The notes beneath the pieces were generated by a model. The model was not told where the DNA came from, ran no database searches, and saw only the letters and a list, made by a program, of their open reading frames with translations. A stretch of 64,000 bases of DNA from contig NW_027117339.1 of the NCBI RefSeq assembly GCF_038025025.1, positions 496,001-560,000 on the forward strand, given 5' to 3'. Position numbers and translations under genes: made by a program. The stretch is from Phyllosticta citribraziliensis (taxonomy: Eukaryota). Positions 30,232-52,550 of the stretch are shown piece after piece. Numbering within the stretch: the first letter of the stretch is position 1; each line of letters opens with the position of its first letter.

Positions 30232-31483
30232 GGCTTCGGTGTCGTGCCTTCGGCCTGGCTGGCCGTACGTGTTTGTCGGTCGATCTGTTGTGGACTGTCA
30301 GCATTTTTCTCTCTACTCAAGTCTGGATTCGCCTCTGCATCTCTCTTTTTCTACCACCCTGTGTCATGGATTGAAAGAAACACGGAGCGTTCCTGTGTTG
30401 ACGGGAGGCGGGAGCGAAGGGAGATCTTTGGCGTTCGTTGCGCAGCCTGGCGTCGAATATTGAAGAGTGGAGACGAAAAATGTCGACTTCGCTCTGCGAC
30501 TCAACACCAGGACTGCAAGACCCGAACAGCGGCTTGCTTCAATCGAATTCAAGCTCCCACAGGCTGTTGCAAACTCGGATCAGAGGGTCCTCCTTTCTCG
30601 AGTTGACATGTACAACTCTTTGACTTCTTGTTCCCCAATCTTCTTCACAAACGCGACACTGTCACGCAAACGACGCTAGTACGCGGCACCAATCATTGGA
30701 AACATCTGGTACGCCCGACGTGTCTCCCATCAGTCTCCGGAAAATGCCATTAGGATATCTGCCAGCGTGTTCCATCGATCCATGAGACTGCCATCAGAAC
30801 ATCTGGGAGGCTCCGAAATCTGGAGGTAGATCACCTGGAGCATATCAAGCCAACCAGCGCATGAAGACGTGTACCAGTCGGGTTGGGTGACTCCGGAACT
30901 GGTCATCGGTGCCTTGAAACCAAAGCAGGTCTGGAGTGCAAGAGTGAAGATAGCTCCGCTCAGACCAAGCACGAGGAAGGCTGACATGGACCCTGAAAGC
31001 ACGGATATGGAGCACGGACAAGATCCAACCAGTACATCACAATGGATATTAGGCACGTGTGGCGCGTGCTATTTGGCAAGGCATCTGATTCCGATATCGT
31101 CGACGACAATTGGCTGACAGCTGTCCAGCAGACGCGGGCCAGCTCATGCAAAGTCAGAGGGGGTTCTTTCGGCATGGCCACATGGGCGGGAGGGTGACTG
31201 GAGCAGGCCCGGACGACGGTCAGTCGGCACCGCCGGCGCAAGAGACGGGCACCTACAAAAGCTTCTCTGGAGGCTCGCTGCTCGACCTTTTCTCTCCATC
31301 GGATTCCAAGAGCAAACGATTGTCTCCCTACTGAAAGATCGCTCAACCTTCCAATACACTTCGGATTCCCATCTTCTCTCTACACCCTGCATCTGACTCT
31401 CCCTCCACACCAAACATCTCGCCTCCTACGACACCAGCCTTCTTGGTCACCCTCCTGCTGGGGTCTGCTTCAGCGTGGCGAAA

Positions 31484-33064
31484 ATGTCGAGAACTCACGA
31501 TATTCGAGCTAGCATGAGTGTCCAGCGGATTATCACTGACGACCAAGCGATGTACTTTGCTCAACACCAGGCCATCGGAAAAGCCCCTGAGCGGCAACAG
31601 AGCACTCCACACGCAACCCCTGGCCGCGAAGATTCTCGTCAAGCAAGCTCGCTTCAAGCAGCTCAAGCACTCCTCTCCCTGTCCCAAAGCCCGCAGATTG
31701 AGGATGAGGTTCCTGAGGTGAGCGCCGCCACGGATGTCCTTGCACCAGGTCGTCCATCGCCAATCGACCGACGTCCCGTGGCCTCCCCATCGACAGATCA
31801 TGTCCGTGCGCAGGGTCGTTCACTTCTCTTTGACCTACCTGTTGCAAACTTTCCATCGCCCATCGACCAAGGTCCTGTAGCCTCGCCATCGACAGATCAT
31901 GTCCGTGCGCAAGGCCATTCACCTCTTGTCGACCTACCTCCTGCAAACTTTCCATCGACACGCCATGCCCCTGTGCAAGCACGCTCATCTTCCATCGACT
32001 TGCCGACCACCCGCTTTACATCGATGAACCACAGGCCTGCGCAAGCGCGCTCGTTCTCCACCAACCTACGGACCACGGGCTTTACATCGACAAACCACGG
32101 CTTAGTGCAAGCACGCTCACAGTCTACTGGCCTACCACGCATGAATCAGCCATCGACCGACGATGCCCATGTGCTAGGCAGCTCCAATGGGCTTCCTGTC
32201 ATCAGGCCTAACCGGATGCCCGTTGGCAGAGGAAATGGCAGAGCCAGACCAACAGGCATCAGCAAGCGAAAGCCCCCGGTCAAGAAGCCAAAGCCGGATC
32301 CCATGGACTACATTACCGCCGGCACACCTCAAACTCGCGAATTCGAATGCACCTACGGCAACCCCTGCATGCTCGGCCAGTACACACTCAACCTGTCGCG
32401 CAAGATGGTGTCGGACTACTTCGGGCGCAACAAGAAGGCGACGGCCATGATCGAGGGCAAGTGGATCATGTCGTGCCGCAAGCACTACCAGCGCCTGTCG
32501 TATCAAGAGAGCTGGCCGTTCACCAAGGCCGACATCGTGCAATCTCAGCTCTTCGAGATTGACCAAATCGAGCCCAACATGACGTGGGAGATCAAGCTCA
32601 AGAACAGCGAGGAGAAGCGCCTCACGGATTACCTCCACGATTGCTCCCAGAACGGCTCTGCCCCTGTCTGGACCTCGCCCGTCGCCACATTCATTCCCGA
32701 CGGCACCAACGGGAAGAAGCAATCGTCGCTTGCCGTGCTGCATTCGCTCCACAGCTTCTGCGGAAAGTCCAAGACTACCCAGGATTGCAGAGACATCATC
32801 GCGGCGGCCACGGCGGCGCTCCACTCGGGCAAAGCCGTCCAGTTTCCCCTCTTTGAAATGATTCCGCAGTTCACGAGCCTGGCCAAGAGGAAGAGGTCCG
32901 CTTCTTCTGCGTCTGGAAACGAGAACGAGGGCACGGGCAGGCCTCACAAGAGGTCCAGGTCGTCGGACGAGGAGGACGACTTTGTGGAGGCGGATGGCCA
33001 CGAGGATGACAGCGAGGATGAGGACTTTGTCATGGAGGATGTGGAGAGCGAGTCGGAGGCTTGA
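31484..33064 (+). CDS. Uncharacterised ascomycete protein with a conserved Cys/His domain (family usually annotated 'ORP1-like'), internal tandem repeats and acidic tail
   Basis: CTYGNPC...RKMVSDYFGRNKKAT...WIMSCRKHYQR; NLS-like KRKR; D/E-rich tail. First ATG at 31484. Confidence 0.7.
   Translation: MSRTHDIRASMSVQRIITDDQAMYFAQHQAIGKAPERQQSTPHATPGREDSRQASSLQAAQALLSLSQSPQIEDEVPEVSAATDVLAPGRPSPIDRRPVASPSTDHVRAQGRSLLFDLPVANFPSPIDQGPVASPSTDHVRAQGHSPLVDLPPANFPSTRHAPVQARSSSIDLPTTRFTSMNHRPAQARSFSTNLRTTGFTSTNHGLVQARSQSTGLPRMNQPSTDDAHVLGSSNGLPVIRPNRMPVGRGNGRARPTGISKRKPPVKKPKPDPMDYITAGTPQTREFECTYGNPCMLGQYTLNLSRKMVSDYFGRNKKATAMIEGKWIMSCRKHYQRLSYQESWPFTKADIVQSQLFEIDQIEPNMTWEIKLKNSEEKRLTDYLHDCSQNGSAPVWTSPVATFIPDGTNGKKQSSLAVLHSLHSFCGKSKTTQDCRDIIAAATAALHSGKAVQFPLFEMIPQFTSLAKRKRSASSASGNENEGTGRPHKRSRSSDEEDDFVEADGHEDDSEDEDFVMEDVESESEA
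31754..32160 (+). repeat. Coding tandem repeat: 2 x 99 bp followed by about 3 degenerate ~66-bp units
   Basis: PSPIDRRPVASPSTDHVRAQGRSLLFDLPVANF / PSPIDQGPVASPSTDHVRAQGHSPLVDLPPANF, then H.PVQARS.S..L.T..FTS.N units. Confidence 0.85.
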
Positions 33065-33627
33065 TTCATGCACGGCCTGGCCTGTCAGTGGTGTTGAAAT
33101 TGCTGTTTGTGCTTTCGGAGGGATTGACATGGAGTTGTGGAAATGGGATTGATTTTTTTTCTTTTGTCACCTGGGAACACACGGTTATATTCTTGAAATT
33201 CCCAAGCATGCTTGCTCATGGATATACTCATCTGGTTGGCCTCTGGGCCTCTTGGTACTTTTACTCAGTAGGCGATGCCTACAAATAGTCGAGGATAGCA
33301 AATGGAAATTGATTCAAATGTGAGTCTGCCCTCACCCTAATTTGGTGACACTGCTCCCCCGTTGGCTCCATTCTCTCTGCTTGTGACTTCACGCAGGACA
33401 AATTGGAAAGGTTGACGATGAATGGAGTGACGTTCGAGCATTCGAGCCCTGATCCCTGTCAGCCAACGTGCGTGGACCCCGGAAGCGTCGATCGCCTCGG
33501 CAAGGCGGGACCCCCGGACGAGGGTGATGTTCGCCTCTCCGCATTTCTGCTCGCATGCCCTACCTCCCCTCCTGGCTTCGTTTCTCGACGGACGCCCAAT
33601 TGCTGAGATGCCCGCCCTCCAACACCC

Positions 33628-34518
33628 ATGCTATCACTCCCTTGGTCAGCACCAACTCGAGCCACAGCACCACCGACGAATGCCTCGACCACGACAGCTT
33701 CCTCTTCAACAACAACAACCATCCTCGCCAACGCCGCAATGTGCCTCGCGACCGACCCAGCGCTCATAACGCTGGTGGCGCTGCTGCTGCCGCTCCTCGG
33801 CATCCTCATCTACCTCACCCACACGCTGACGACGAACCAACGCGCCTATCTCGCGCGCCTGTCGACGGCGACGACCGCCCTCAACGCCGTCCGCGACACG
33901 CTGACCCAGCAGACGTCGCCCGTCGCCGTCACCCTGACTGACGCCGTCAAGGACCTGCACGCGGCCCTCGCCGACCACGCCTCCAGCCTTACCCACGCCG
34001 CCGTGCTGCAGCGCGAGGTCGCCGACGAGCTCAAACGCGTGCGCCAGCCCAGCGGCGGCGGCACGGCCACAGCACCACATGGGCCGCTACTCCACCCTCA
34101 CCTGGCGCATCTCCAGCATTTCCCGCCCCGCGCCACTCCCTCTACCCGCCCCGGTGACGGCGCCGACGACATCGATCTGTACCGCCGCAAGGTCGAGGCG
34201 CTCGAGGGCCTCAGAGCCATCCTGGAGAGCAACCAGAACCTGCGAGACATACGGCCTGGCGAAGACGAGGCGCTGTACCGCAAGCGCGTCGACGCGCTCG
34301 AGGGCCTGTGGAAAGTGATGGAAAGCCAGCTCGGCGTGGCTGGCGGCGGCAACAACAACAATAACGGCGGCGGGCCGGTGGGACCGACGGCGATGGCGAC
34401 GGCGACGAAGGGCAGGAAAAGCGGCGGCAGGAAGGTGGCGAGGGCGCGGGGCTCGGTCAGTGAGGTGGGCAGTCGTAGGAGCGAGGAGACGCTCGCAGAG
34501 AGCTTGATGGATGTGTAG
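33628..34518 (+). CDS. Hypothetical single-TM, coiled-coil protein with a duplicated LYR(R/K)(K/R)V(E/D)ALEGL motif
   Basis: High GC3 ORF; TM segment ALITLVALLLPLLGILIYL; alternative ATG at about 33739. Confidence 0.6.
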   Translation: MLSLPWSAPTRATAPPTNASTTTASSSTTTTILANAAMCLATDPALITLVALLLPLLGILIYLTHTLTTNQRAYLARLSTATTALNAVRDTLTQQTSPVAVTLTDAVKDLHAALADHASSLTHAAVLQREVADELKRVRQPSGGGTATAPHGPLLHPHLAHLQHFPPRATPSTRPGDGADDIDLYRRKVEALEGLRAILESNQNLRDIRPGEDEALYRKRVDALEGLWKVMESQLGVAGGGNNNNNGGGPVGPTAMATATKGRKSGGRKVARARGSVSEVGSRRSEETLAESLMDV

Positions 34519-34789
34519 GTATGCAGCGTGAAAGCGGAAGTGAAGGCGGGCGGCGGGGCGCGGCGGCTGGCAAAGTCATTCGGTGCTGGGTGGGTGGGTG
34601 GTCAAAAAATGCTGGTTGCGGTGTTGAGGCGTTGGCGCAACTGCGTGGTTTGCAGGGCATGAGGTCGTTTGTCGCCCTTGCCGATTCTTTTTTTGCAAAA
34701 AAATAAGGAAGTCCGTGGGTTGGGTGGTGGTGCTCGCGCCCGGACTCGACCACGCGCTCAAATAATTATTGAGTTGGGAGGTTCGGCAC

Positions 34790-34923
34790 AAAAAAAGATA
34801 TCATTAAGATATTAGTGGGTTGTTCGAGCCTCTTAGAACCTAACCTCTGTTCCCATAGACCAGTGGATGTGCAATTGGTCGGGTCCGATAACGTCCTCGG
34901 TCGGGTTCCAGGTCGAAGATTAG
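34790..34923 (-). ncRNA. Structured small RNA family 1, copy 1 (TATA / T7 / downstream B-box-like motif)
   Basis: 102-nt core (34822-34923) matches 36752-36853 at 98 of 102 positions; terminal stem and four-way junction; T7 run at 34790-34796. Confidence 0.65.
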
Positions 34924-34938
34924 GATGAACTTTTGGCC

Positions 34939-34945
34939 TTATATA
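34939..34945 (-). promoter_or_regulatory. TATA box (TATATAA) of family 1 copy 1
   Basis: Begins 25 nt before ATCTTCGACC; same spacing in copy 2 although the spacer sequence differs. Confidence 0.65.
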
Positions 34946-36715
34946 TTGACTGTTCTTCGTACTTTTTCACAAGAGGAGGCATGAAACGTTTCATACCGCC
35001 GACACTCGCCCAATGGCCCGCACGGCATCACAAAGCAACAAGACTGTCGCAGCCATTTCTTCGTGCTGCTGTGGATCAAACCGCTTGAGGTCTTTCGTGA
35101 AAATGACAACCCGCACCAACACCCCAGATAATCAAGATTTGCAGGATCGTGTCTCTGAGCCTACGCGTCTGCAGTGGAGTCTGGGTAATTTAATTCGTCA
35201 AGGAGCACATTCTCTGCAAGTACTTTTCCTTGCCCGGCCCTCTATGGGCGCGACACCTGCAAAACAGCCTTCCCATCCCTTATCTTCCATTTCCATAATA
35301 TTAGGTGCCAACAAAGATCAGCCTCTGGCGCGCGAATCGATGCCTGATTAAAATTCTGAATGTCCTTTGAAAAGACTTTGAGCAGCGTGCACTCTGCTAC
35401 TGTAACTCCTGTAGTCAATCACTGCTCTGTTGGGTCCATTTGGAATTGAGGACCCGCTTTTACACCCCCTGTAGAGAAACGTAGGTAGTAAAGGCCAGTA
35501 CGTGCCGTGGACGCCTATCTGTATATATGGGCGGCGTCCGCACTGAAGGAAGACAACCCGTGGACTCATCTCTCAGTTTCCTTAGTATCTGGGCCCAACA
35601 ACACTCGCTAAGATACACCAGGGCCATAGGCGCTTGCAGCTTCCAAGGTTGCTCTGTTTGGAGCAAGGCGCATATCTCTGTCGTGCGAGACCTTTCTGAG
35701 CAGCTGTTTTGCAGTCCGTGTACGTGGAGCAGTCAGGCACAAGTACTCTCGTTTGCTTTGTCCCACCATAGATGATCCTGCACCCATTTTCGGCTGTACC
35801 TGCGACCGTCATAGGCGTGAATCTCCCGCCAAATGTTTGTCTCGAGAGCTTCGCCGCTCGACATGGCGAAGTGACGCGTCATTGCCGCCTGCAAGTGTCT
35901 TGCGGAGAAGGCAGTCCGGGCGAGGAGACGCCATGCAAAATCGGCCCCTCAGCCATAGTTTGAATCGTTCCTCGCAGGGCTGCCAACTTCCTTCCGAAAT
36001 TTGAGGTTCTTGTGCGCAGCCTCCAACTTCGCGCGGCTGTCATGCGATGCCGCCTTCGCGCCATACCGCCCATGCTGATAAGTAGACCTGGCCATTATGA
36101 TGTGAGTGAGGTATGAATGCTCCATCCATCTTCTCCACAAACACAATTCTTTACGTGATGCTGGGCGTCGTTGTGGGGGAAGTCTAGAGTGGCGGCGGCG
36201 ACAGCAGTATCAGTGGCGTGGTTGACGGCGGTGATGGCTCGACGGGGGACTCATTGTGAGCCTTGAATGACTGGAAAAATTGGGCGACTTTTATTTGTGA
36301 GGGTGAGAGCGAGAGATGGTTCGAGGGAGAGTTGTTTGCGCAGTGGAGGTCAACATGGTTGAGGTGAATGGTCAAGGTGCGCGAGCACTAACAAAATGCC
36401 GGCATTCTAAGATATCGTAAGCAGTGAATGACAAGATAATGTCAGTAAGAGGAGAGAGGGTGTTAAAATAGAGGCTGGGGTGTCAAAAAAGGTCGCCGCC
36501 GTACTAAGCGCAAGAATGAAATCAGCGTTGCTTTGCTGGGCATGAGTGCAATGACACCGCCCGGCAAAGTTCTTACAACCTGACATGGCGCCGCCGCCGA
36601 CATTGCCAAGCAAAAGTTTGTTGCGGGCGCGACGTTTCTTTTTTGCAAAAGTGATTGTTGCCAACACTGGGACTCGACCGCGAGCTCAAAGGATTACTGA
36701 GTTGGGAAGTTCGGC

Positions 36716-36853
36716 AAAAAAATATCCTTAAGATAAGGATTGTATAAGTGGGTTCGAGCCTCTTGGAACCTAACCTCTGTTCCCATAGACCAGTGGGCGT
36801 GCAATTGGTCGGGCCCGATAACGTCCTCGGTCGGGTTCCAGGTCGAAGATTAG
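36716..36853 (-). ncRNA. Structured small RNA family 1, copy 2
   Basis: Core 36752-36853; T7 run 36716-36722; GGTCGAGTCC B-box-like motif at 36670-36679. Confidence 0.65.
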
Positions 36854-36868
36854 ATCAAAGTTTCCACA

Positions 36869-36875
36869 TTATATA
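36869..36875 (-). promoter_or_regulatory. TATA box (TATATAA) of family 1 copy 2
   Basis: Same 25-nt spacing to the core as in copy 1. Confidence 0.65.
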
Positions 36876-37374
36876 TTGCCATTTTTCCTTGACCCGGACA
36901 CTGCAAGCCGCGCTCTACTGCCCCAGCCACTTTCTAAACATGAGGACATTATGAGTTGGTTGACCTACTCACCCTAACACGTGTACAGCCAGCTTCTGGA
37001 AAAGGCGGCCCCTGGGCCCCCGACATCCAATATTTACCTTGCTTGTCTTACCTGTGGCCGGATTCAGCATTGTTAGAAGAGCAATCATGTTGAAGATGCG
37101 CTTTCGCAACAAGGGAGTGCATTCCAAGACTTTGATGATGGTGGGAGTACCAGATGACATGAATGCTCCCAATGCGCCCACAACACCACACCACACGCAC
37201 AACGAACGAACGAACGCACCACAACGGCAACCCCCACAGTCCATGTTCAAAGGCGAAGGAAATGCCCCAGCGGAAAGTAGACAATAGAGTCGCTTGAGGG
37301 AGCAGACCCTAATAGGCTTGCTGTGCCGGTCCTTTTTTCACGAATACTGAACCACTTGAGTGACTTGATCTTAT

Positions 37375-37641
37375 TGACGAAGTAAGATGAGAGAACTGAA
37401 GACTCTATTTGAGGCTACTCTGAGAGCTATCTATATACTGCTGAAACTGCCAGGGGGAGTAGTAGCTGGTACTAACTGCTGATGAGTCCTGAACTTGTTG
37501 AGATATATAAAGCTAATAGATAAGTGTATCTTGACTAAAGTAGTAAGTTGTTGTCTGGATAAGCTGTAGTTATCTAGGTGAACTGTAGCTAAGATGATGC
37601 GATGGGAGACTGCTTAGTATTATTATATAGGACTACTAATA
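37375..37641. repeat. LTR (3' LTR of the minus-strand element)
   Basis: Direct repeat of 42297-42563; differences seen are transitions. Confidence 0.95.
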
Positions 37642-40600
37642 TACCCCCTAGGATGAGAAAAGAGATAGTTATAGTAGAGTAGATATATAAGTAGTTATAT
37701 TAACTAAATAGAAAACTTACTATATTAGTCTATACCTAATAAGGTTATAAAAGTAGTGGTACTTAACTATTATTAATACTTTAGTAAGCCTATCTATAAT
37801 CATCTTATTAGTAGAGATATAAGAGATGGTTATAGTTCTATCTATAACTACCTACTTAATATACTAGTAGTATAGATTAATATGTTTTATAGTAGTATTA
37901 AACTCTATACTATTAGTAAATTAGATGGTATTCTTATTATTATTATAGAGCTAGATTAGTTAAGTATTAGGGCCCTTATAACCTATTTTAGTAAGAACTT
38001 AAGTCATCTAGATGGCTTATTTAATAGTAGGAGTAAGGTTAATAAACTTAGCTTCTATTATAGATATACTAATAAGCTTCTATCTCCTACTCTTTATATA
38101 TAGTAAACTACCTAAAGCTATAATAATATAGCCTAATAAGGACTAATAAGTATCTAGATTATTAGTAAAAGTAGTATCTATATAGATTTATAAGCTAAGA
38201 GTGCCATTATTACTAGGGTATAGAATGATTCTATAATTATATATACCCTATAAGTATTAAAGGACTTAGTAAGTAGCAGTAAGGTGTTTATTTAATAGGT
38301 TATAGGTATATTATAAGAGATGAGTAGTAGGGAAAAGAATAGCTAGATAGCATCTTATTATATACTATATAAGTAAGCTAATAATCTTATTATAAAGCTA
38401 TTAATAGTCTAGGTTATTCTTACTATTATACACGCGTAATTTATAGGAATCTATTAGTATAAGGACGCGTATAGCATTACTTATACTAAACTATATAAGA
38501 ATATTTTAAATATATCTACCTTAGGATAGTATAATTATGCCGTTTATATATTAATTAATATAAAGACTAAGGAAGTAATATAGTCAGCCTATATCTTTAA
38601 AGTAGATCTTAGTATTAAGTAGTAAGATAATTTTATTAACTTTAGACTTAGTTTTAGTAGTAATATAGAGATTATTAATATAGATAAGGATAAATATAAG
38701 CTTATCCTAGTATCTTATAATATAGGGTTCTAAAGGGAGAGAGTAGAAACCTAGGTAGTATAAGAAATTATAGAGGCACTAAAACTAAGTAAGTAGTAAC
38801 TAGTATAAGCTATATAAGGCTCTTTAGAGACGCTAAACTTATTATAGGACCTAGTATCTAGGAGGTATATAGGTATAGACTAGGTCTTTTAGTAGTATAT
38901 TAAGGAAGGCTGTCTTAATATCCCCTTACTTATAAAATAGGTAATAATAGATGTTGATTACTAAAAATAGTATAAAAGTAGGAAATATAATAACTAGTAA
39001 TAATACTTTAGATATATTAAATCCCTTATATTAAAGATTACCTAAAACTATAATATAGCTCTTATAGACAACCTTCTTACCTAGCTTATTAAGCTTATAG
39101 ACCTAGACCTATTATAGTAGCAGTACCTAAGAGCTATCTAATAGGTAGTTAGTCTCTTTAAAGGTACTAGTATTAGTTAACTCCTATATCTACTTATCTA
39201 TAGAGGGTCTCTAATAGATAGATTTTAGCCCTATAAGGGCCTTATACTATAAGTAAGGTAGAACCTTATTAGTAGGGATAGTATCTTATTAGTAATAAGT
39301 AGTATTTTCTATAGTAGTAAAGGTGCGTATATAGTAAGTAGATAGTTAAGGAGGTTAAGTATTATCTAAACTATATTTCTTATTAAAGAATTATATCTTA
39401 GTGCAAATCTACTAAGGGTATTATAATAGTACTATTAGTAGTAGAGTAGATATAGGTAATAGAGATAGTAAGGGTAGTAGTAGGGTTAAAGTTAGGTTAG
39501 TAAGTACTAAATTATTAGATCTAGTATATTTATTAGCTAGAGAGATATTAATCTAATCTATTTTATCTACTAATAGTATAATATCTATAAATACATCCTC
39601 CTTACCTCTACTACTAATATCTATACTACCTATATTAGACCTCTCTACTACTTTAATTACTTATTCTGCTATATTATAGATTACTTTAGTATTACCTTTA
39701 AGAGCATCTTAAACTATTTTTAATATAAGATATATAATAAGCATCTTATTATTACTATTCTTAACTTTTCTATCTTCTATATTATTTATAGTAGCTATTA
39801 AGTCTAGCTACTAAGGAGGTCTAAAATATATATTCTAAGTATAGATAACCTAGTTTATTTAAGGGAGATATACCTAGAAGATATACTTATAGTTATAGCT
39901 AATAAACTATTCTTTCTCTACTCTTATATTAAATTTAGTGCTCTTAAGACGCTTCTCAGCTAGGATATAAGTATATATAGTAATACTAAAGACTAGTACT
40001 AGTAACTAGATATCCTTATACCTACTAATAGTATCATTAAAAATGTTAACTAGTATCTTGCTATTAAGTATATAAGTAGGAAGATAGTTAAGAAGATATA
40101 CTATATATTAATAGGCTTCTATCTATAATAATTAAGGCATATTTAACGCGATACTTATAGAGCGGGCTATACTAGTAATAAGGTATATAGATAACTTACT
40201 AATACTATTTTACTTAGGTAAGTATAGTGCCGTCTTTTTAACCTTAATACCCTCTATCTTTACCTATACTAGCAGCTTTTAGCCACTAAACTCTATACTA
40301 TTATCTATTTAGAGGGCTTAGATCTTATATTAAAACTAGGTTTTAGTCTATTTACTAAAGTTTTAAATACTATTAAAGGCGTCGCCCTTAGTCTTTATAA
40401 CTAATAAGTATTATAGATATAAGTAGTTATCTATAAATACCACCCCTTAATAGTAGCTATTATAGCTAACTATAAGTAGTCTAAATATATTAATATAGAT
40501 GCGTCTAAAGGGCGCGTCTACTTAAGGTATTAGTTTATATAATACCATCTAGTAGGACTTAGCTATATAGCAGGATTTATAATAGAAGTCTTAGTTACTA

Positions 40601-42296
40601 GTAATAATAAGTTATCCCTAGTACTAGAGCTTATTAAGCATGCTAGTATAGACATGCCCTAATTACTAGTACTATATCTTATATATTACTATAGGAGGAG
40701 TTACTATAGTAAATACTTATACTATATAATTATTATTAATAACTATTAGAATATTTACCCCTAAACTATTAGGGTAAGCTATAATAGCTATTCTATAGTT
40801 TTATATTTATAATATAGAGGTAAGCTAATCTAGGTATAGTCCCTTCTACTTAAGTTTTAAAGCTGAGATAAGACTAACTATTAGTACTAGAATATATAGA
40901 ATACCCTTTATTATGAGAGTGTTAACTATACTATTTATAGGATAGTAGAGTATAGTATTACTATAGCTAATAGCTATTACTATACCTAAACTGCGTACCT
41001 AGACTAGCTGTATAAACTATAAGTAGTTTATTAGCTTAGTTAAATTTAGTATATAGTAGGTATTAGCCCTAGTATTAATAATCTATTTATCCTTTATTAA
41101 AGCTAGATATAGGTATAGGGTAGTAAAGTAGTTTATACCTTATACTAGAGGGTTAGTTATTAATATTATTATTACTATTACTACTATTAGCAGTTTAGAG
41201 ACTTAATTATCTAGTATATAGAATACCCCTAATACTAGCTTCTAATAGGTAGGATAGTATTTAAGGTAAAGATAGCTATACTTAGTCTTAATATACCCCT
41301 TCTTTCTATAGTAATTATAGGTGGTATAGTTAGACTTAGACTGCTTAGTAGACTACTAACTAGTATAAATAGTAAGAGCTATAGTATTATTCTTACTAGT
41401 ATATTTAATCTTATTAGTTATAGTATAGAAGAGATCCTTAAACTTAGGTATCTCCTTCTTATTATACTAATTTATATATTAAGTTATATACTAGATAGGA
41501 ATATTATCCTATAAGTTTTCTAGGAGTAGAATATAGAGAATCTAGTCCTTAATTTACTATTAGATATAGCTAATATAGGCTTACCTTTATTTATATAGGG
41601 TATTATAGAATTCCTTTACTATTATAAAATTACTATATTAATAGAAGATAAAGTCCTTAATAATATTAGCCTTAGAGAGGATACCCTTAGTATTATATAT
41701 ATTATAAAGCTTCTACTATATAGAGTAAGCTAAACTAGTATACCCCTATAGTACTATTATAATAGGAAGTATAATAATTATTATAAACTAGTAGATAATA
41801 TATATATCCTTCTTATAATTAGTAGTATTTTTTAGCTTATCTTTAAGTAGATAGGTATAATAGAATAGACTAAGCCTTATCTTAACTATTATCTTAAAGG
41901 TTACCTAGTTAGTAGGGCCTTTAAGTGGCTAGATATTCTTTAAAGGGATACTAAACTTATTATTATTTATAATTAGGTCTACCTCTTCTTTAGCCTTAGC
42001 CTACTTAGCTAGTATAGAAGATGAGGTGGTGGTAAAGCCTAAACTACTAGATAATAAGGGAGGAAGGGAAGGTAAAGTTATAGTAAAGATAATAACTATT
42101 AGTATATTACTTAGAGTTATAGAGATAGATAATACTAATAAATTTACTAAAGAGTAGGAATTGTATAAGATAATAAGGGATAAAATAATAAAATAATAAA
42201 ATAACTATTAGTAATAATTGTATAGATAGTATTATAGTGTAATACTAAAATAAGCTAGATAAGTAATTTGTGTGTATAATGTGAGGGCTTATAACC

Positions 42297-42563
42297 TAAT
42301 AAAGTAAGATGAGAGAACTGAAGACTCTATTTAAGGCTACTTTAAGAGCTATCTATATACTGCTAAAACTGCTAGGGGGAGTAGTAGCTGGTGCTAACTG
42401 CTAATGAGTCCTAAACTTGTTAAGATGTGTGAAGCTGATAGATAAGTATATCTTGACTGAAGTAGTGAGTTGTTGTCTGGATAAGCTGTAGTTGTCTAGG
42501 CGAACTGTAGCTGAGATGATGCGATAGGAGACTGCTTGGTGTTGTTATATAGGACTACTAACA
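42297..42563. repeat. LTR (5' LTR of the minus-strand element)
   Basis: Direct repeat of 37375-37641; adjacent to the PBS. Confidence 0.95.
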
Positions 42564-45161: not shown

Positions 45162-46918
45162 GCTTGGGGAGCGTTCGTGGTGTGATTGCATGGGTTGGGA
45201 GATTTCGTGGAGCTGCGACCAGGGCACGTTCGACATGTGTCGCAAAGGTCGGAAAAGGTGGTGGAGCTGAGCTCGGAGAACGTCAAAAATGTGGTTCGAT
45301 TGGATGAGCGGGTTGAACGAGGTGGAGAGTGGACAAAGCCCGACATGTGGTACGATTCGTCGACTGGGTTGGAAGGAGTGGTCCTGGATCGCGAGGACAG
45401 AGACTTGTAAATCTCTTGTGTTTTGGCTCGCAAGGATGAAGATCATGGGAGGGAAGGAAAAAAACGGGCGTAGATGCCAGGTCCTCGACGGAAAAAGACT
45501 CTGGTAGCTAGAAAGAAGCATACAAGACTTGGTGCTCCTCAAAGATGGCTGCAGGTACGGAACGAGAAGCATCCAAAATCTACTGACAAGAAAAACTCTG
45601 GTTGTAGTCCCGACACACTTACCCCCGGCGACAAATCTGTCTGCTTCTCCCACGCGTCAGGCGGTTGACGCTCCACGGTGTCGAAGCAGCAGCGGCGCTG
45701 CTACCCTACTGCCAACGGCAATCCCCAACCACTGCACACGACTGCCGATCATCTTCCGAAGCCTCAATTCCTTCATCCGATCGTTCTGAAAGAAAGGTCG
45801 AGCGAATTCCGCGCCAGCACAACACCGACCGTCGTCTTTTCACCTTTGTTCTCCTCCAAAAGCGCGCAAGCAGCCCGTCAAAAGACACAGCAGCCCACGT
45901 ATTTCGACAAACAAATGTCCAGCAACCTCCAGAACAATGACAAAGAAAGAGAACAATGCTCAGCCCAAACTGCCGCGGTTTGCGCTCGAAAGCGAAAGGT
46001 TTCGCAGCGAGTGAGGTGCAAATTGAGTTGTCGCCCCGCCCGCCGATCGCGACGGTAAGCCTGATGCAGAAAGGTGGGCCGGCGGACCCGCCAATGATTC
46101 GCGTGGCTCGGGTGAGCTAGCCGCGAGCGGTAATATCGTGGGCAGGGGTGCGACTACCTGCAACACCAAGCTGACGAGATGGTGTACTGCGCGTGGTTTG
46201 GGAGGAGCGTGATGGTTGAGAGAGCGAGAAGCGGAAAACACCATTATTGGGCAGGGTGGGAGTGCAAAAAGCGCAACATTTGGAGGACGAAAGGTAGAAG
46301 CGTACAAAGCGACATGCAGGACGACGGCGGTCAAAACCTTGACGCTGACATTCATTGCATTAGGCTGGAGACGCCATTTTCACTGCATTTCGCCTTTTGA
46401 AAGATGCCGCGGAATCTCCCCTGGGTCGGCCAGCACGGCGAATACGAACTTTTGCTGCAGCTCGCTCTGGCTGTTGATGTCGCGTGGGAAACACTCGTCG
46501 CAAGACTGAAACAATTTTATCGCGCGACAGAACGCATGCAAGGGAGCCAAATGAGTTTTCCAAGTTCAAATCATGGTCGCGGCGATGCATAGTGTTTTTC
46601 TGGCCACCGCTGTCGTCACCAGCGCAGCTACGCAGCCTATGGCTTTTGGCTTTCATTGGCTGGGGCACTGTTGCGAAAATGGGGGCGATGGAGGTAAGAA
46701 AGCCTCTTACCTTGTTATTAATGTGGCGAAACGAAGCATCCGAACTGCCTGGCGAGAATGTAATTTGCGGTTGCTGAAGTCGTGACGCTGCTTTGTCGCC
46801 TTTGTCGAACAACATCGCGGGCGACAGTACACAAACCGAGTGACGGGAGTGGCCTTCAGTCTCATGAGGCAAAAAAAGTAAAGTCGACGAATCTGGGGAA
46901 AGGAAAAAATACGGAGAC

Positions 46919-47095
46919 AAAAGAATTGGTGCCTGCACACCTTGCTGTGCTAAACGAGGGGTAGATATATTGCAGTATCCCAGACTCGAACCTTCAAACT
47001 ACGGCCTACACGTCGGCATCTCACGCCAGGCGCAGATATTCAGTTCTTGATAATATGTGCAGCAACCCACCTGACGCATACGCCTTGGGTGCAAT
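46919..47095 (-). ncRNA. tRNA-like Pol III RNA family 2, copy A
   Basis: B box GGTTCGAG at 46985-46992; D-arm-like hairpin; conserved 3' block at 46927-46952; T runs downstream. Confidence 0.65.
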
Positions 47096-47379
47096 TCGAG
47101 TGTTTCATGGGGTTCTGCCCGTTGATTATGTTTTTAATACTTTCTGGTCACGACGCCGTCGCCGGATGTTGCAATGTAACCTTCTTACCACAACAACACA
47201 CGAGTGGAGACTCCATCACTGCCATCAATTGACTTGGACTTTCTTTGTCAATTGACAGCACAATTCAGTAAAAAGTGTTCGCCGACGGGTGTCAGAGGAA
47301 GTGGGCCAAATGGCAAACATTTCAGCGACTGGAATGTCGGGTGAATGAGGAGCAGGCGCAATACTAAGAATTCAAAGGG

Positions 47380-47545
47380 AAAATGATACCTACACACCAT
47401 GCTGTGCTAGAACGAGGCTACCGCCATCGCCACCGGCAAAGCTCGAACCGTAAACCCACTGCCTATATGCAGCCTATATGCCAGTATCAAACACTAGGCG
47501 CAGAAATAAGTTCTTGATAACGCGTCAAGCAACCCACCTGACATG
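47380..47545 (-). ncRNA. tRNA-like Pol III RNA family 2, copy B (5' end diverged)
   Basis: B box at 47442-47449; 3' block at 47384-47409; compensatory GATAC/GTATC pairing; short internal tandem duplication of GCCTATATGC. Confidence 0.6.
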
Positions 47546-49735
47546 AACTCGTTTTGGTCTTCGGGATTTTCACTACCGAATCATGACCGCCTGCCTCGCT
47601 GATTCAACACTCGCAATGTGGGCTTTTTGGACAGTGGTCCGGAATTCGGTGAAATTGCTCAGACCCCGGCGCCTGCGCCTATCCCAACTAGTGATCCTCT
47701 ATCCAATCGCCTTATGCATCCCATTTTTCGTTCGCTTTTCACGCCGCTTGCCCGCTTTCCCGGATTGCTGACTGCAATCCCCAACATCATCTCTCGCATT
47801 CAGACGTGTGCAAGAGCTTGATCTCGAATTAATCCAGCACTGCACCAGAGAGCCGCTAGCCCCAAGGACGAAAGGCAGAAATAATCGACTATAAGGGAAG
47901 AAAAGGTCTTTACTAACTCCGAGACTCTCCGCCGGTCGCGCACCCGGTCGCGCCGCCATGCATCAGACGTGATGAACAGAGAGAAAGAATTCCGAGAAGC
48001 CGAAATTGAGTATACGAGCAGCGGATGGATGTGTCAACAAAGGTGAGTCGAACGCCGGCCCAGTTGCTGGACTGAACTTAGCGATTGGAAGCGACTCAGG
48101 GACCGACCCAAACACCGATCAGTCATTCTCACATCCCTGTTTGCTCGGTACATCCTTCGGAATGTTTTTCAGTCACCTGCTCGTCGCGCTGTGCTGAGAA
48201 TGCTTCTCATCCCGCGGCCTTCGGCGTTTCGTGCTCAGATCAATGTCCAACAGGCAAAATCCACGCAGAAAGATAGACTCCAAGACGCGGTAGTTTGGAC
48301 ATGCTGACAGATGATTCAAGCCAGACACGCTGTGCAAGTGGCCGGAGAACCTACTGAACAATGCATTGAGCGAGCTTTGGACAACGCGCCGAACAGGACG
48401 TGACGGAAGATGTCCGAAAGAGAAGTGCGAGCCAGAAATTCGGCCGTGATATCTGTTGGCGACGTAGACGCTTGTACATTTGCGTTTGTGTCTGCTTTCG
48501 ATTCTTCAAAGGGTGAAAAATGTCTCCAAAATCGCTGCTGAGAGCCTTCGAGCCGGCCCTCACGCAAAATCTTAGCAAGCCGATCAGCAGGCTTCTCTAG
48601 GCCAAAGGGGACCTTTGACTCCAAGATAAACCAGAGACACTCTGATCTTGCTGTAAATTGAAAGAAAGAATCAAAAGTCAGCGCGGCCATCAATGATGAA
48701 GAGTCTCGCAAACTCTAGGGCGCGCGAGCGGGCAGTTTCGGGTAGCGCCTGTCACCACCAAGAGTTGAATCGATTCGGTGATTCTCATGCTCATAGAATG
48801 GCTCAGGCCTTCCCAAGTCCGGAGTGGGTGCCCAAAATAATTGAAAATTGCGATGTGCAGGCGGTGGTTGGGGTCGTCACGTATTTTTAATCTCTCCGCC
48901 GGCGGTACCACCACGTATTAAACAAAGCAAAAAGAGTGACTACGATTCCAAGACCTGCAGGATGAGCGACTGAGCGGTCAATCTATCTGTTGGCTCATTG
49001 CGTGTATTTTGTCGCGCGTTCCGGCACTTTGTGCTCAGATCATCGCCCAACGAGCGAAATTCTACGGGGAGAGAAGGACTCAACGGCAACGCGGTTTGTT
49101 CAAGGTGCTGGAAGACACTGTGAGCAAGACGCAGTGGGCGAAATGTGGCAAGACATGCTGGGCAAGCGGCAAACAGACTTACCGGACGACGCGCTGAACG
49201 ACATCTTTGAGAAAGCGATGAGCAAAACGTGCTGGACGAAGAGTTGGTGGTACGTAATGGAGTGTCAGTAGCCTAGCTGCACTACCTGCTCGCTCGGATG
49301 TCTGCACAGTTACCAGTCACGATCGTGTCTGCGGGAGTGGTCGAAGGTAATCGCAAACATCAGCGTTGAGCGCTGTCGAGGCAAACATCCACCTCCAGTT
49401 CAGAAAACTGAGCAGGAGGCTTCTCCAACGTAGGCGGGACCTCTAAAGTAAAGAAAAATCAGAAGGCACCTGATCTGGCCAGCGATGAGGAAGATGAGAG
49501 AACAATCTGGGCAGCAAACAGAGATGACGAATCTGGAAGACTATGAGGCCCTCAAGCGGGCCAATGTATTTCGGGCGGTCCTTGTTTGCTTGTCACCTTC
49601 TTGAGCTGAGTCAAGCAGATGTTTCGCTAATCCACAGTGGGTTTGGAGTGCTGAGTGTAACTATCTGATGGGCTTTGTGGTTCGGAAGAAAAGATGCGCA
49701 GCGATGATCGCAACGGCGGCAGGAAATCAGCGGAC

Positions 49736-49921
49736 AAAAAAGTAAAAGGTGATGCCTACACACCATGCTGTGCTAGACAGGAACAGTTTATTGCAGCAAA
49801 CCAGACTCGAACCTTCAACCTGCTTATAACGACCTATACGTCAGCATCTTACGCTAGGCGCAGGTTGAGTTCTTGAAAATGTGTCAATTAACCCACTTGA
49901 CACATACGCCATGGGCGCAAT
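49736..49921 (-). ncRNA. tRNA-like Pol III RNA family 2, copy C
   Basis: A box TGGCGTATGTG; B box at 49806-49813; 3' block at 49750-49775; T4 and T6 terminators. Confidence 0.7.
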
Positions 49922-51152
49922 TTGGATTATGGTTAGAAATTCAGCTGCTTAATTCAATTATGGAGTAGAAATTCGGCAAAGTGGCCTTGGCGACGGCGGT
50001 CTCCATCGCCGGTCTGGCCAGAAGATTTACGCTCGCGAATTTGCATGATCTGGGTAAGTAGACTCATTATTTTCATCTAATCCACTGCCCTAGCATGGCG
50101 GTGCGCCATCTAGAGCTTTGCATGGCGGCCTCAAATCTGGCCCGCGATGCGAAGCGTCTGTGAAACACCGCATTTGCTCAATGAGTCGTCCTGAATATCT
50201 CTCAACCATTTGATTCCCGTCTCTTGATCTACGTGTTTGTCTTGCCGCGTCTCTGGACGCTTCGAGCATAGGTCGTCGACCAACGAGCGAGAGCGACTGG
50301 GGGATTCACTCGACTATGCGAAGAGCTTGCCGTGCTCTGAGAAGTAGTGGGCAAGACGTAGTGAGTGAGATGCGGCAAAATGAGGCCAAAGCTACCAAGA
50401 AATGCTTTCAGCAACGCGTTTAACGCCACGTTGGACGCCGCACTGAGCAAGGTGTGCTGGACGAGAGCCTGATGGAGGACACCTGTACGCGGCTCGCTTC
50501 CAGTGTTGGTGACGTCAGTGGTGGCTGCCAGGGTCTAGGTATGCCCGTGAGAAGTAGTTTTGACGCGTCTTTGCGCTCGTCCTCTCCCACACTACACAAC
50601 GATCACGGTTTTTTATCTTCCTCAGAGCTTGACAGAAAAGGAAGAGTCTGTGATATGGGTGCACTTTCTGCTGACTTGGATTTATTTCAGTTACTTGCGC
50701 ATCTGCTTGAGTGGCTGAAAGCCATTTTCAACGTTGCTGTTGGGCGCTGCGGTCGAGTAAGCCCCTCCCGCAAAGGTTCAGCGATTTGATCAGCATAAAA
50801 TTTGCTCCAAAATTAGCGCAACCTCCAAACCCAAGATTCGTCCAAGAACAGCCCAATTTGCAAGTAGTAAGGAAGAACTTGAGAAAATTGAAGCCGCGAG
50901 GAAATGAGCCATTGAACAAACGTCAGGGCGCTCGGGAGGGTGAATGTTTTCCAGGCGCTGCTTGTCGCCACCAAGAGAAATTCCAGGCAGGTTTTTCGCT
51001 AGATCACAGGCTGCATTTGTCGCGCCTGGTGGTGACAGATTCGAGCGGCAAAACGAAGACCAAAGATGATCAAAGCTGAGGGGTGGTGATTAGAATAAAA
51101 AGTAGATAGGGCTGGGCAAGCCTCATTAGTAAAACACAAAATTCAAAGACTC

Positions 51153-51347
51153 AAAAAAGACAAAAGTGATGCCTCCACACCATGCTGTGCTATACGGGGA
51201 GTAAGAGTCCATTGCTGCCTACGAAGCTCGAACCGGGAACCTGCTTATAATAGAGGCCTATATGCCGACATCAAGCACTAGGCGCAGATACTGAGTCCTT
51301 GATAATGCGTCAAGCAACCCGCCCGACACATACGCTAAGGGAGCAAC
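51153..51347 (-). ncRNA. tRNA-like Pol III RNA family 2, copy D
   Basis: A box TAGCGTATGTG; B box at 51227-51234; 3' block at 51167-51192; T4 and T6 terminators. Confidence 0.7.
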
Positions 51348-52550
51348 TGTCATTACTTCAGCGCTCGCTCAAATAGCACATAACTTGAAGCAAATGCGCC
51401 TGGGCCAAGCGCAGAGAGATGAATTACCGCCAATACCTGTACTCCTCCCCGATGATTGACAAGTCATAAGAGCAGACGAGAAGTCGGAACACGAAGCCGC
51501 ATTATTTCTCCACATCAATCCGTGTCAACTTCCATGACCTTACAGCTTCTTCTTTCGTTACCTAAAAGTAAAGTACTTTGAAGAATCTTAAATTCTACTC
51601 TACTACGCCAGCCCTCGGAAAAGGTTGCATCATGCGATGTAGAGCAAACGGACCTGGCAGCTTCAACCTGTAATTTGGTCTCATGAGATGCAGTATTTTT
51701 AGCGTTTCCTCTAGATTTGGAGCCCTTGATTGAGCTGTGGTGCTGTAAACTATGTTCATCTCCCCATCAAGACGAGCGCCTCGCGGCCCTTGCCACTCGC
51801 ATTGATTCACGTTGGAAACCCAAAAGCCGAAGGATATTCTGAACGCCCTGTTCTGCCCATGCGTAGATCCAAACTTTCGAAATTCGAATTTTGGATGGAC
51901 ACGACGTTCAAGTTGGAAGTGTTAATTTTGACAATGGCACCGAGCGCCCGATGGCCTCAATATCTCTAGTCATACGCGCAACCGTTGAGTAGAGGGTGCC
52001 CAATCGCAGTGCTGATCTGCCTTATTTTCATCTGCCTTAGACCAGAGACTGCGAAACGTAGATATGATCGCATCGTCCGACTCCCTCTGACGACGGTCCT
52101 TCCAACCACAACACTCCTTCCGACCACAATACTCCCTCTACCGCCGACACACCTTTTGCCGCCAAATCACCCTCGATTACGATTTGACGAAAATTCCTTC
52201 TGCGTCGCGACTCTACCCTCCACCGTGTCGTCTCCAGAGCTTTGCGCGGTCTTGCCTGGTCGTCCCGTCAACACCACCTCTCGCTACTTTCCTTCGACGT
52301 GCAGCACTTTCACTCGACCCGCCTCAACTTCTCTAAGTCGTGTTCTATTTCCCTTGCCGGCGCAACACCCACCCTGCGTCAAGACTTCGGCGAGGTTTCT
52401 TCGCCCAATCCTCCTTCATACGACTTTACTTGTTGTCGACGTTTCGCGCCCGCCGGTTTGCGCTCTGACGGATCTACGCACCAGCAACCGCCGCCGCTCG
52501 GCCCTTTACATGTTGATGAGCCTTGGTCAGCCATCAACCTCGGCAGTCTC

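Follow-up and report, generated by a model that had tools for sequence, protein, structure and literature searches.

Yeast SNR6, as an excerpt of PMC9136082 describes it, carries a TATA box at -30, an intragenic box A and a box B that lies behind the terminator, 202 bp from box A. Here we characterize a duplicated element in a 64,000-nucleotide stretch of the genome of Phyllosticta citribraziliensis (contig NW_027117339.1, positions 496,001 to 560,000 of the forward strand; hereafter the window, in whose coordinates all positions are given). Its minus-strand layout recalls SNR6 in that a TATA motif lies about 25–30 nt before a conserved start, a run of seven T (T7) stands behind an RNA-like core and a conserved TCGA-containing motif follows downstream of the T run. 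Unlike SNR6, the sequence is not U6 (no Rfam hit), there is no box A near +20, and the downstream motif lies only about 45 nt behind the T run. To our knowledge, small RNAs of filamentous fungi beyond tRNA, 5S RNA, small nuclear RNAs (snRNAs), small nucleolar RNAs (snoRNAs), signal recognition particle (SRP) RNA and RNase P/MRP RNA are almost unknown. We tentatively read the two copies in the window, together with at least one locus elsewhere in the genome, as paralogous genes for a lineage-specific small non-coding RNA, which would be transcribed from the minus strand under a TATA promoter; judged by sequence comparison, we regard this as possible, if not quite probable.

The unit is present as two direct copies 1930 bp apart, on which direct reading, repeat finding, alignment, BLAST and nhmmer agree (Table 1). 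BLAST aligned copy 1 with copy 2 at 82% identity over 216 nt and recovered only 34742–34948 against 36670–36878. Neither BLAST nor nhmmer found another copy in the window, and by the same searches the intervening 1.5 kb is unique sequence, so the duplicated unit is the small element itself. In both copies TATATAA lies 25 nt from the core, measured start to start, across an 18-nt spacer, and the minus-strand core begins with ATCTTCGACC at 34920 in copy 1 and at 36850 in copy 2. We delimit the core by 99 alignment columns, from ATCTTCG to GGCTCGAAC; the original prediction, which had proposed a duplicated structured RNA gene with a U6-type promoter, counted 102 nt (34822–34923 and 36752–36853), i.e. 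three more identical bases. Its description of two copies 1930 bp apart with four differences in 102 nt is accurate, as is every coordinate it gave, and both reading and alignment confirmed TATATAA exactly 25 nt before the core in each copy. The predicted T7 runs follow the core after trailers of 25 nt in copy 1 and 29 nt in copy 2; these trailers differ in sequence, and each can form a hairpin. Their one match, TATCTTAA.GA, has a score that 9 of 300 shuffles reach. Past the T run lies a 53-nt block that is 87% identical between the copies (alignment score 71 against 11.5 ± 2.0, reached by 0 of 300 shuffles) and is closed by GGTCGAGTCC, which is conserved at 10 of 10 positions and was found downstream of the T run where it had been predicted. 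The boundary of the common sequence reads ...TATATATTG on the plus strand and CAATATATAA on the minus strand. Beyond the unit, the copies have in common TTTTGCAAAAAAGAA and CTCATGCCCWGCAAA.C.ACGC (34663–34643; score 27 against 15.8 ± 2.3, 0 of 300 shuffles). Weaker similarity had been claimed to extend to about 34600 and 36480: two short common blocks do reach 34643, but BLAST sees the unit only.

Conservation within the unit is sharply unequal. Mismatches occur in 4 of 99 core columns, all of them transitions, and in 24 of 94 aligned sites in the remainder, which has 10 gap columns in addition (Fisher p = 2e-5); this corresponds to a divergence of 4% in the core and about 26% elsewhere, in agreement with the drifted flanks noted earlier. 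The 18-nt spacer is identical at 9 of 18 positions, no better than shuffles (168 of 300 score as high), so that its earlier description as unrelated was fair. A TATA motif kept perfectly at a fixed distance across a spacer that is free to vary is the pattern of a position-dependent promoter element. Upstream of TATA no clear similarity between the copies was found (15 of 300 shuffles score as high), which fits a promoter needing little more than TATA and internal elements. Differences in the flanks show a transition to transversion ratio near 1:1, which indicates that the duplication is old and that neutral positions are near saturation. Repeat-induced point mutation (RIP) alone does not explain such a pattern, and we ruled it out as the source of the divergence. 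Taken with the unequal conservation, the ratio points to a duplication that is old and whose core is held by selection or gene conversion.

Table 1. Positions of the conserved unit, its parts and the adjacent protein gene in the window
Feature	Position	Strand	Evidence
Copy 1, entire conserved unit, TATA to GGTCGAGTCC	34742..34948	-	BLAST 82% over 216 nt against copy 2; nhmmer E=5e-71
Copy 2, entire conserved unit	36670..36878	-	Repeat finding, BLAST, nhmmer
TATATAA, copy 1	34939..34945	-	Direct reading; 7/7 identical to copy 2
TATATAA, copy 2	36869..36875	-	Direct reading
Core, copy 1, ATCTTCG...GGCTCGAAC	34822..34920	-	4/99 mismatches to copy 2; fold
Core, copy 2	36752..36850	-	Alignment; contigs of the third paralog match 36752–36844
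Variable trailer with small hairpin, copy 1	34797..34821	-	Alignment, fold; only TATCTTAA.GA common to copy 2
T7 run, copy 1; possible RNA polymerase III terminator or Sm-like U run	34790..34796	-	Direct reading
T7 run, copy 2	36716..36722	-	Direct reading
Conserved block past the T run, ending in GGTCGAGTCC, with hairpin CUCAA/UUGAG	34742..34789	-	87% identity
GGTCGAGTCC, copy 1	34742..34751	-	Direct reading
GGTCGAGTCC, copy 2	36670..36679	-	Direct reading; 2 mismatches to the B-box consensus
Two more short common blocks, TTTTTTTGCAAAAAAAGAA at 34706–34685 and CTCATGCCCTGCAAACCACGC at 34663–34643	34643..34706	-	Alignment, 0/300 shuffles
Neighbouring protein gene, 296 amino acids, Phyllosticta-specific hypothetical	33628..34518	+	92% to P. 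citrichinensis protein; apparent transcript continues through copy 1

A third paralog and a view of transcription were obtained from contigs of two sequencing runs, X1 and X2, which carry one organism label. That these contigs derive from RNA is our deduction and is not on record; patchy cover, uncovered intergenic gaps and adapter letters at the expected 3′ ends of genes fit RNA. Copy 1 is covered in both runs. A 1613-nt contig of X1 covers 33612–35202 unbroken, comprising the open reading frame (ORF) of the neighbouring 296-amino-acid protein and all of copy 1 including TATA, with adapter letters at 35202, and a 282-nt contig of X2 covers 34669–34951 and stops 6 nt beyond TATATA. On this evidence copy 1 is transcribed, if only within a longer RNA that is apparently plus-strand. 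No contig of either run is identical to copy 2, and 35205–36086 is uncovered; neither gap counts as evidence. At 34688 the X2 contig is one T short in a T run relative to the window, which may be a strain difference or a homopolymer error. Further contigs, of 1114 nt in X1 and 845 nt in X2, match 36752–36844 with 6 other letters over 93 nt and come from a locus elsewhere in the genome. They continue into different sequence beyond the core, although in the 30 loose letters visible on each side a relationship to the copy 1 and copy 2 flanks can still be recognised. Aligned by eye in the minus sense, these letters show a TATA-like ATACAAT 19 nt before ATCTT, a distance one base greater than that of TATATAA in the other two copies, and a 5′ end that reads ATCTTGACCTGG, with one C fewer. 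After the core follow AATCC, T4, GCCCA, T4 and then ...CTCAG, the T4 runs lying 5 and 17 nt past the core.

Searches against known families left the unit without a relative. Rfam gave no match at gathering scores in the 64-kb window; at E ≤ 10 nothing was found in 34650–34960 (311 nt), and only two irrelevant weak hits in 34500–37000. ARAGORN predicted no tRNA gene in the window. As far as these models reach, the unit is thus not U6, 5S, SRP RNA, a spliceosomal snRNA, a catalogued snoRNA or a known ribozyme, in line with the earlier statement that it did not look like U6, 5S or SRP RNA; the Rfam search proposed at that time was run here, and the family match that would have spoken against the prediction did not appear. 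We dropped 5S, U2, U4, U5, Y RNA, vault RNA, and H/ACA and C/D snoRNAs, as well as the thiamine pyrophosphate riboswitch and retrozyme-type self-cleaving ribozymes, since Rfam gave no hit and their box motifs were not seen on reading; a tRNA or tRNA-derived gene was dropped with the lack of an ARAGORN cloverleaf in the window. In a metagenome scan a 20-mer of the core occurred at one locus, a chance match in a reverse-transcriptase-like frame with no similarity outside the 20 bases. Viral contigs scanned with two core words yielded 0 and 0 matches, prokaryote genome contigs scanned for the core yielded none, core strings were not found in literature full text, and a literature search on Phyllosticta non-coding RNA or on small RNA genes of RNA polymerase III (Pol III) in filamentous fungi found nothing relevant. 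A minus-frame translation of copy 2 (93 amino acids) compared with 1.84 billion representatives gave three hits, none over core residues, the best being a repetitive protein that matches residues 55–87. With no start codon and no homolog, a protein-coding exon was rejected, and no protein domain or ORF accounts for the core. An inverted-repeat word of Tc1/impala-like type (CAGTGGG..GCAAT) lies inside the core without an inverted partner and was likewise set aside.

If the unit is a small RNA gene, TBP bound at TATA would place the start at the A of (A)ATCTTCG, some 25 nt further down. The constrained core of ~100 nt would be the functional RNA, and the variable trailer and the T run behind it would act as 3′ trailer and terminator; the primary transcript made by Pol III would then be about 130 nt long, with U's at its end. 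The layout of the sequence, its unequal conservation and the third paralog are established; we infer the strand, start, end and polymerase, as well as the accumulation of any small RNA. Within this reading Pol III is somewhat the more probable enzyme, over an snRNA-type gene of RNA polymerase II (Pol II). The strongest argument is positional, namely the fixed distance of TATA and the near-invariant sequence that starts abruptly where the transcript would start. Trailers of 5, 25 and 29 nt in the three copies lead to T runs, and small RNA genes with their promoter and terminator have this appearance after old duplications at the DNA level.

Several observations weigh against this reading, beginning with the promoter boxes. 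The TATA of the proposed SNR6-type layout fits, with TATATAA in copies 1 and 2 and, by eye, TATA-like ATACAAT in the third copy. A run of at least five T fits in two of three copies, as T7 at 25–29 nt past the core; the third copy has two T4 runs only. The internal and downstream boxes do not stand out. The motif proposed as box B, (T/C)GGTCGAGTCC, i.e. TGGTCGAGTCC and CGGTCGAGTCC, has two mismatches in each copy to the B-box consensus GGTTCGANNCC. Sites with up to two mismatches are not commoner than chance in the window (142 against 187 ± 15 in shuffles), nor are those with up to one (13 against 14.6 expected). One pair of sites with at most one mismatch lies at the 3′ edge of the copy 2 core (GGCTCGAACCC on the minus strand, GGTTCGAGCCT on the plus strand), and copy 1 is without it. 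GGTYCGA/CGACC-like words are unusually frequent in the unit (of the 142 window sites, 5 fall within the 207 nt of copy 1), so that a likeness of one of them to box B is not informative. Moreover, GGUCGAG at the unit's end is complementary to UUCGACC at the 5′ end of the core (seven pairs, positions 5–11 with 177–183), which is another possible reason for its conservation. No match to the A-box consensus TRGCNNAGTGG with up to one mismatch was found on the minus strand of either unit, near +20 or elsewhere; within the core, such a match occurs solely on the plus strand (TAGACCAGTGG, at 34856 and 36786), and the 30 A-box matches in the window are at chance level (26 expected).

Folding does not help the reading either. 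The core can fold as a long irregular hairpin closed by pairing of its ends, UUCGACCUGGAACC with GGUUC.AAGAGGCUCGAA; through one of the four core differences a G-U becomes G-C. The tip of the hairpin, GACCA/UGGUC, encloses a 13-nt loop. In both copies AUUGCAC opens this loop, and the two loop differences lie behind the heptamer. The label 'structured' was nevertheless not sustained: folding z-scores of the core, of the core plus trailer and of the 185-nt unit were -0.74 to -1.55 on both strands, no better than shuffles. RNAalifold gave energies of -45.6 kcal/mol for the plus strand and -42.2 kcal/mol for the minus strand, with five and four one-sided changes that keep pairs, respectively, and the plus-strand structure keeps both changes of an AT/GC double difference inside a helix. 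With two sequences only, neither the structure nor the strand can be established. The lack of an Rfam family match, whether at gathering scores or at E ≤ 10, counts on the same side, and no homolog from another species was obtained from the metagenome, viral and prokaryote collections scanned. A simple model of core plus terminator leaves the constrained 53-nt block past the T run unexplained. Furthermore, a discrete RNA of ~110–140 nt had been predicted, and the contigs show copy 1, TATA included, within a continuous stretch of 1591 nt joined to the neighbouring ORF, and the core of the third paralog in the middle of the 845- and 1114-nt contigs; such contigs could not display a discrete small RNA, nor its ends or strand. 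The adapter letters at 33293, 33319 and 35202 are oriented as for 3′ ends of plus-strand RNA, given what we take the adapter sequences to be, and suggest that the RNA across copy 1 is a plus-strand one ending at 35202. Read-through of this kind across copy 1 might be expected to meet an obstacle in a bound Pol III complex.

The presence of at least three copies, two of them within longer transcript-like contigs, would also fit a dispersed repeat without cellular function, i.e. a remnant or non-autonomous mobile element that favours untranslated regions (UTRs), is co-transcribed with host genes and has a core homogenised by gene conversion and not by selection. We consider this rather unlikely, even though an imperfect inverted repeat (UUCGACCUGGAACC / GGUUCUAAGAGGCUCGAA) frames the core, the GGTYCGA/CGACC-like word recurs in the unit, neither an Rfam match nor a thermodynamic signal was found and a probable element with long terminal repeats (LTRs), degraded by RIP, lies 500 bp away in a region that thus accepts mobile DNA. 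Neither terminal inverted repeats at the ends of the unit nor a target-site duplication were found, the distance of the TATA motif is kept, no other copy occurs in the 64 kb, and in all three copies the flanks show blocks of homology and are not unrelated. The direct copies are also unlike LTRs, having no TG...CA ends and a very uneven divergence, and on these grounds (4% in the core, about 26% elsewhere) we rejected an LTR pair of a small retroelement. Miniature inverted-repeat transposable elements (MITEs) and short interspersed elements (SINEs) of fungi resemble the unit in being short, non-coding and multi-copy and in often sitting in UTRs, and the inverted-repeat ends of the core and the A- and B-box-like words add to the likeness. 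Unlike them, the unit has no target-site duplication, no terminal inverted repeats of the whole unit and no A-rich tail, its divergence is uneven, and it has an upstream TATA at a fixed distance, which retroposition would not carry. A MITE was set aside because repeat finding gave no inverted repeat involving the unit ends and no duplicated flank was seen on reading. Introner-like elements are described, in an excerpt of PMC4457414, as multiplying introns in Dothideomycetes. The unit shares with them that it is a multi-copy element of ~100 nt in a Dothideomycete, lies inside transcripts and has a plus-strand core running from GT to AG, but GTTCGA at its 5′ end makes a poor splice site, and the stop codon of the host gene precedes copy 1. 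As described in 2012, such elements reportedly have GT...AG signals and strong folding. We rejected this candidate because the core is still present in the contigs of copy 1 and of the third copy, with no joints reported, though contigs can miss rarer spliced forms, and because the flanks of the copies are homologous, whereas independent insertions would have unrelated ones.

Alternatively, the element may act in plus-strand Pol II transcripts or as DNA between convergent genes, for example as a 3′-UTR structure or a 3′-end/termination module in which UAUAUA and the A/T runs would signal processing. Copy 1 is covered by a contig that is continuous with the upstream ORF, the three sets of adapter letters have the orientation of plus-strand 3′ ends if we presume the adapters correctly, the X2 island 34669–34951 nearly coincides with the conserved unit in stopping 6 nt past TATATA, and predicted folding is no worse for the plus strand than for the minus strand, both changes of the AT/GC double difference keeping pairs on the plus strand. 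We nevertheless hold this to be unlikely. The X1 contig extends 254 nt past TATATA and the contigs of the third copy 621 nt past the core, so the motif does not mark the RNA end in those cases; an RNA element would be less expected to have a spacer that is constant in length but not conserved in sequence; the z-scores are not significant; and no gene is evident on the plus strand upstream of copy 2. Pfam searches of 10 ORFs between the copies gave one match at E ≤ 1 (GH3, E 0.25, 11 bits against a cut-off of 23.6) and none that is meaningful. The 53-nt block, in turn, would be accounted for if the RNA extended from ATCTTCG to GGTCGAGTCC as a Pol II snRNA-like RNA of the Sm class of about 185 nt, in which hairpins would flank the U run as an Sm-type site, the block would form a 3′ stem-loop and the AUUGCAC loop would bind a protein of the U1A/U2B''-type; this we find improbable. 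The seven pairs between 5′ UUCGACC and the far-end GGUCGAG agree with it, as do AUUUUGG after the core of the third copy and the loop of GACCA/UGGUC, which starts with AUUGCAC in both copies with the differences behind the heptamer, a motif that presumably marks a U1A/U2B''-type loop. One heptamer found after the fact is weak evidence, however, and Rfam gave no hit to U1, U2, U4, U5 or any snRNA, even at E ≤ 10 in the 311-nt search. The 5′ end CUUCGACCUG differs from that of U1, ACUUACCUG, no stem-loop with a U1-70K-type loop is present, and the third copy is poorly conserved after the U run over its 30 visible letters. As motif readings only, the U runs read AUCU7GU in copy 1 and AUAU7GC in copy 2; the Sm site is RAU4-6GR. 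The likeness to U1 and other Sm-class snRNAs lies in the TATA-type promoter, a 5′ end resembling ...CUU.ACCUGG, the AUUGCAC-starting loop, the U run between hairpins, the 3′ hairpin and the length of about 185 nt if read through the U run, the meanings of the motifs being as we take them. The unit differs from U1 in matching no Rfam model, in its altered 5′ splice-site-binding sequence, which reads AAUCUUCGACCUGG, and in having neither a U1-70K-type loop nor a four-way junction. More specifically, an orphan U1-like snRNA of the Sm class, again of about 185 nt with a U1A-type AUUGCAC loop, a U-rich Sm-like site and a 3′ hairpin, could pair through a changed 5′ arm with a target different from a standard 5′ splice site; the arm reads CUUCGACCUG in copies 1 and 2 and CUUGACCUG in the third copy, and we regard this version as very improbable.

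The small RNA gene remains a reasonable, if unproven, reading of an observation that is real and better than chance. What holds of its original form is the gene-like layout, the T-rich run and the lack of a match to a known family; the tests did not support an SNR6-type B box or the label 'structured', and the contigs did not show a discrete RNA. A real gene family would mean a new abundant RNA, with a Pol III or snRNA-type promoter, in a genus that includes citrus pathogens, and it would offer a short native TATA-plus-terminator cassette of the kind used for guide RNA expression. A merely co-transcribed repeat would be an ordinary feature of fungal UTRs.

The genes of the window are fungal, among them ones encoding an MRC1 domain, a Gal-1-P uridylyltransferase and a Na/H exchanger. 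The 296-amino-acid protein encoded next to copy 1 is 92% identical to a hypothetical protein of Phyllosticta citrichinensis and 64–74% identical to proteins of three other Phyllosticta species; its homologs are confined to Phyllosticta, apart from weak ones in Macrophomina and Saccharata. By these identities the window belongs to a Phyllosticta-like Dothideomycete. Its ORF contains two 48-nt repeats 96 nt apart (34164–34307) that encode ...LYR(R)K(V)(E/D)ALEGL.... Upstream, two tandem 99-nt repeats with 85% identity (31753–31950) encode a proline/serine-rich segment within a 555-codon frame (31397–33064), and the adapter letters at 33293 and 33319 sit about 230–255 nt past the stop of this frame. 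A 5404-nt contig of X1 ends at 33319 and would reach back to about 27.9 kb (27938, calculated from its length); it would span the Na/H-exchanger ORF as well as the ORF 31397–33064, which suggests overlapping or read-through transcription.

Direct repeats of 260 nt (91% identical) at 37380–42561 surround about 4.7 kb of 25–27% GC (about 37.7–42.3 kb); this is probably an LTR retrotransposon degraded by RIP. It starts about 500 bp upstream, in the minus sense, of the copy 2 TATA. A second family lies on the minus strand at 46880–51370, with four copies of ~180 nt at about 46925–47085, 47385–47560, 49735–49915 and 51155–51335. The copies have invariant stretches GGTTCGAG and TAGCACAGCA.GGTGTG.AGG, T runs end two of them, and RNAalifold predicts helices in which three pairs are changed on both sides yet remain paired; there is no Rfam match, and the family looks like another structured RNA or a tRNA-derived repeat. 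Interleaved with it are three copies of a third repeat family of 48 nt (48213–48260, 49013–49060 and 50246–50293). Weak Rfam hits resembling C/D-box snoRNAs occur at 48286–48335 on the plus strand and at 50021–50075 on the minus strand (E 3.3 and 6.3, far below gathering scores). Small RNA genes may be clustered in the region from 46.9 to 51.3 kb, or the region may have arisen by tandem duplication of a segment.

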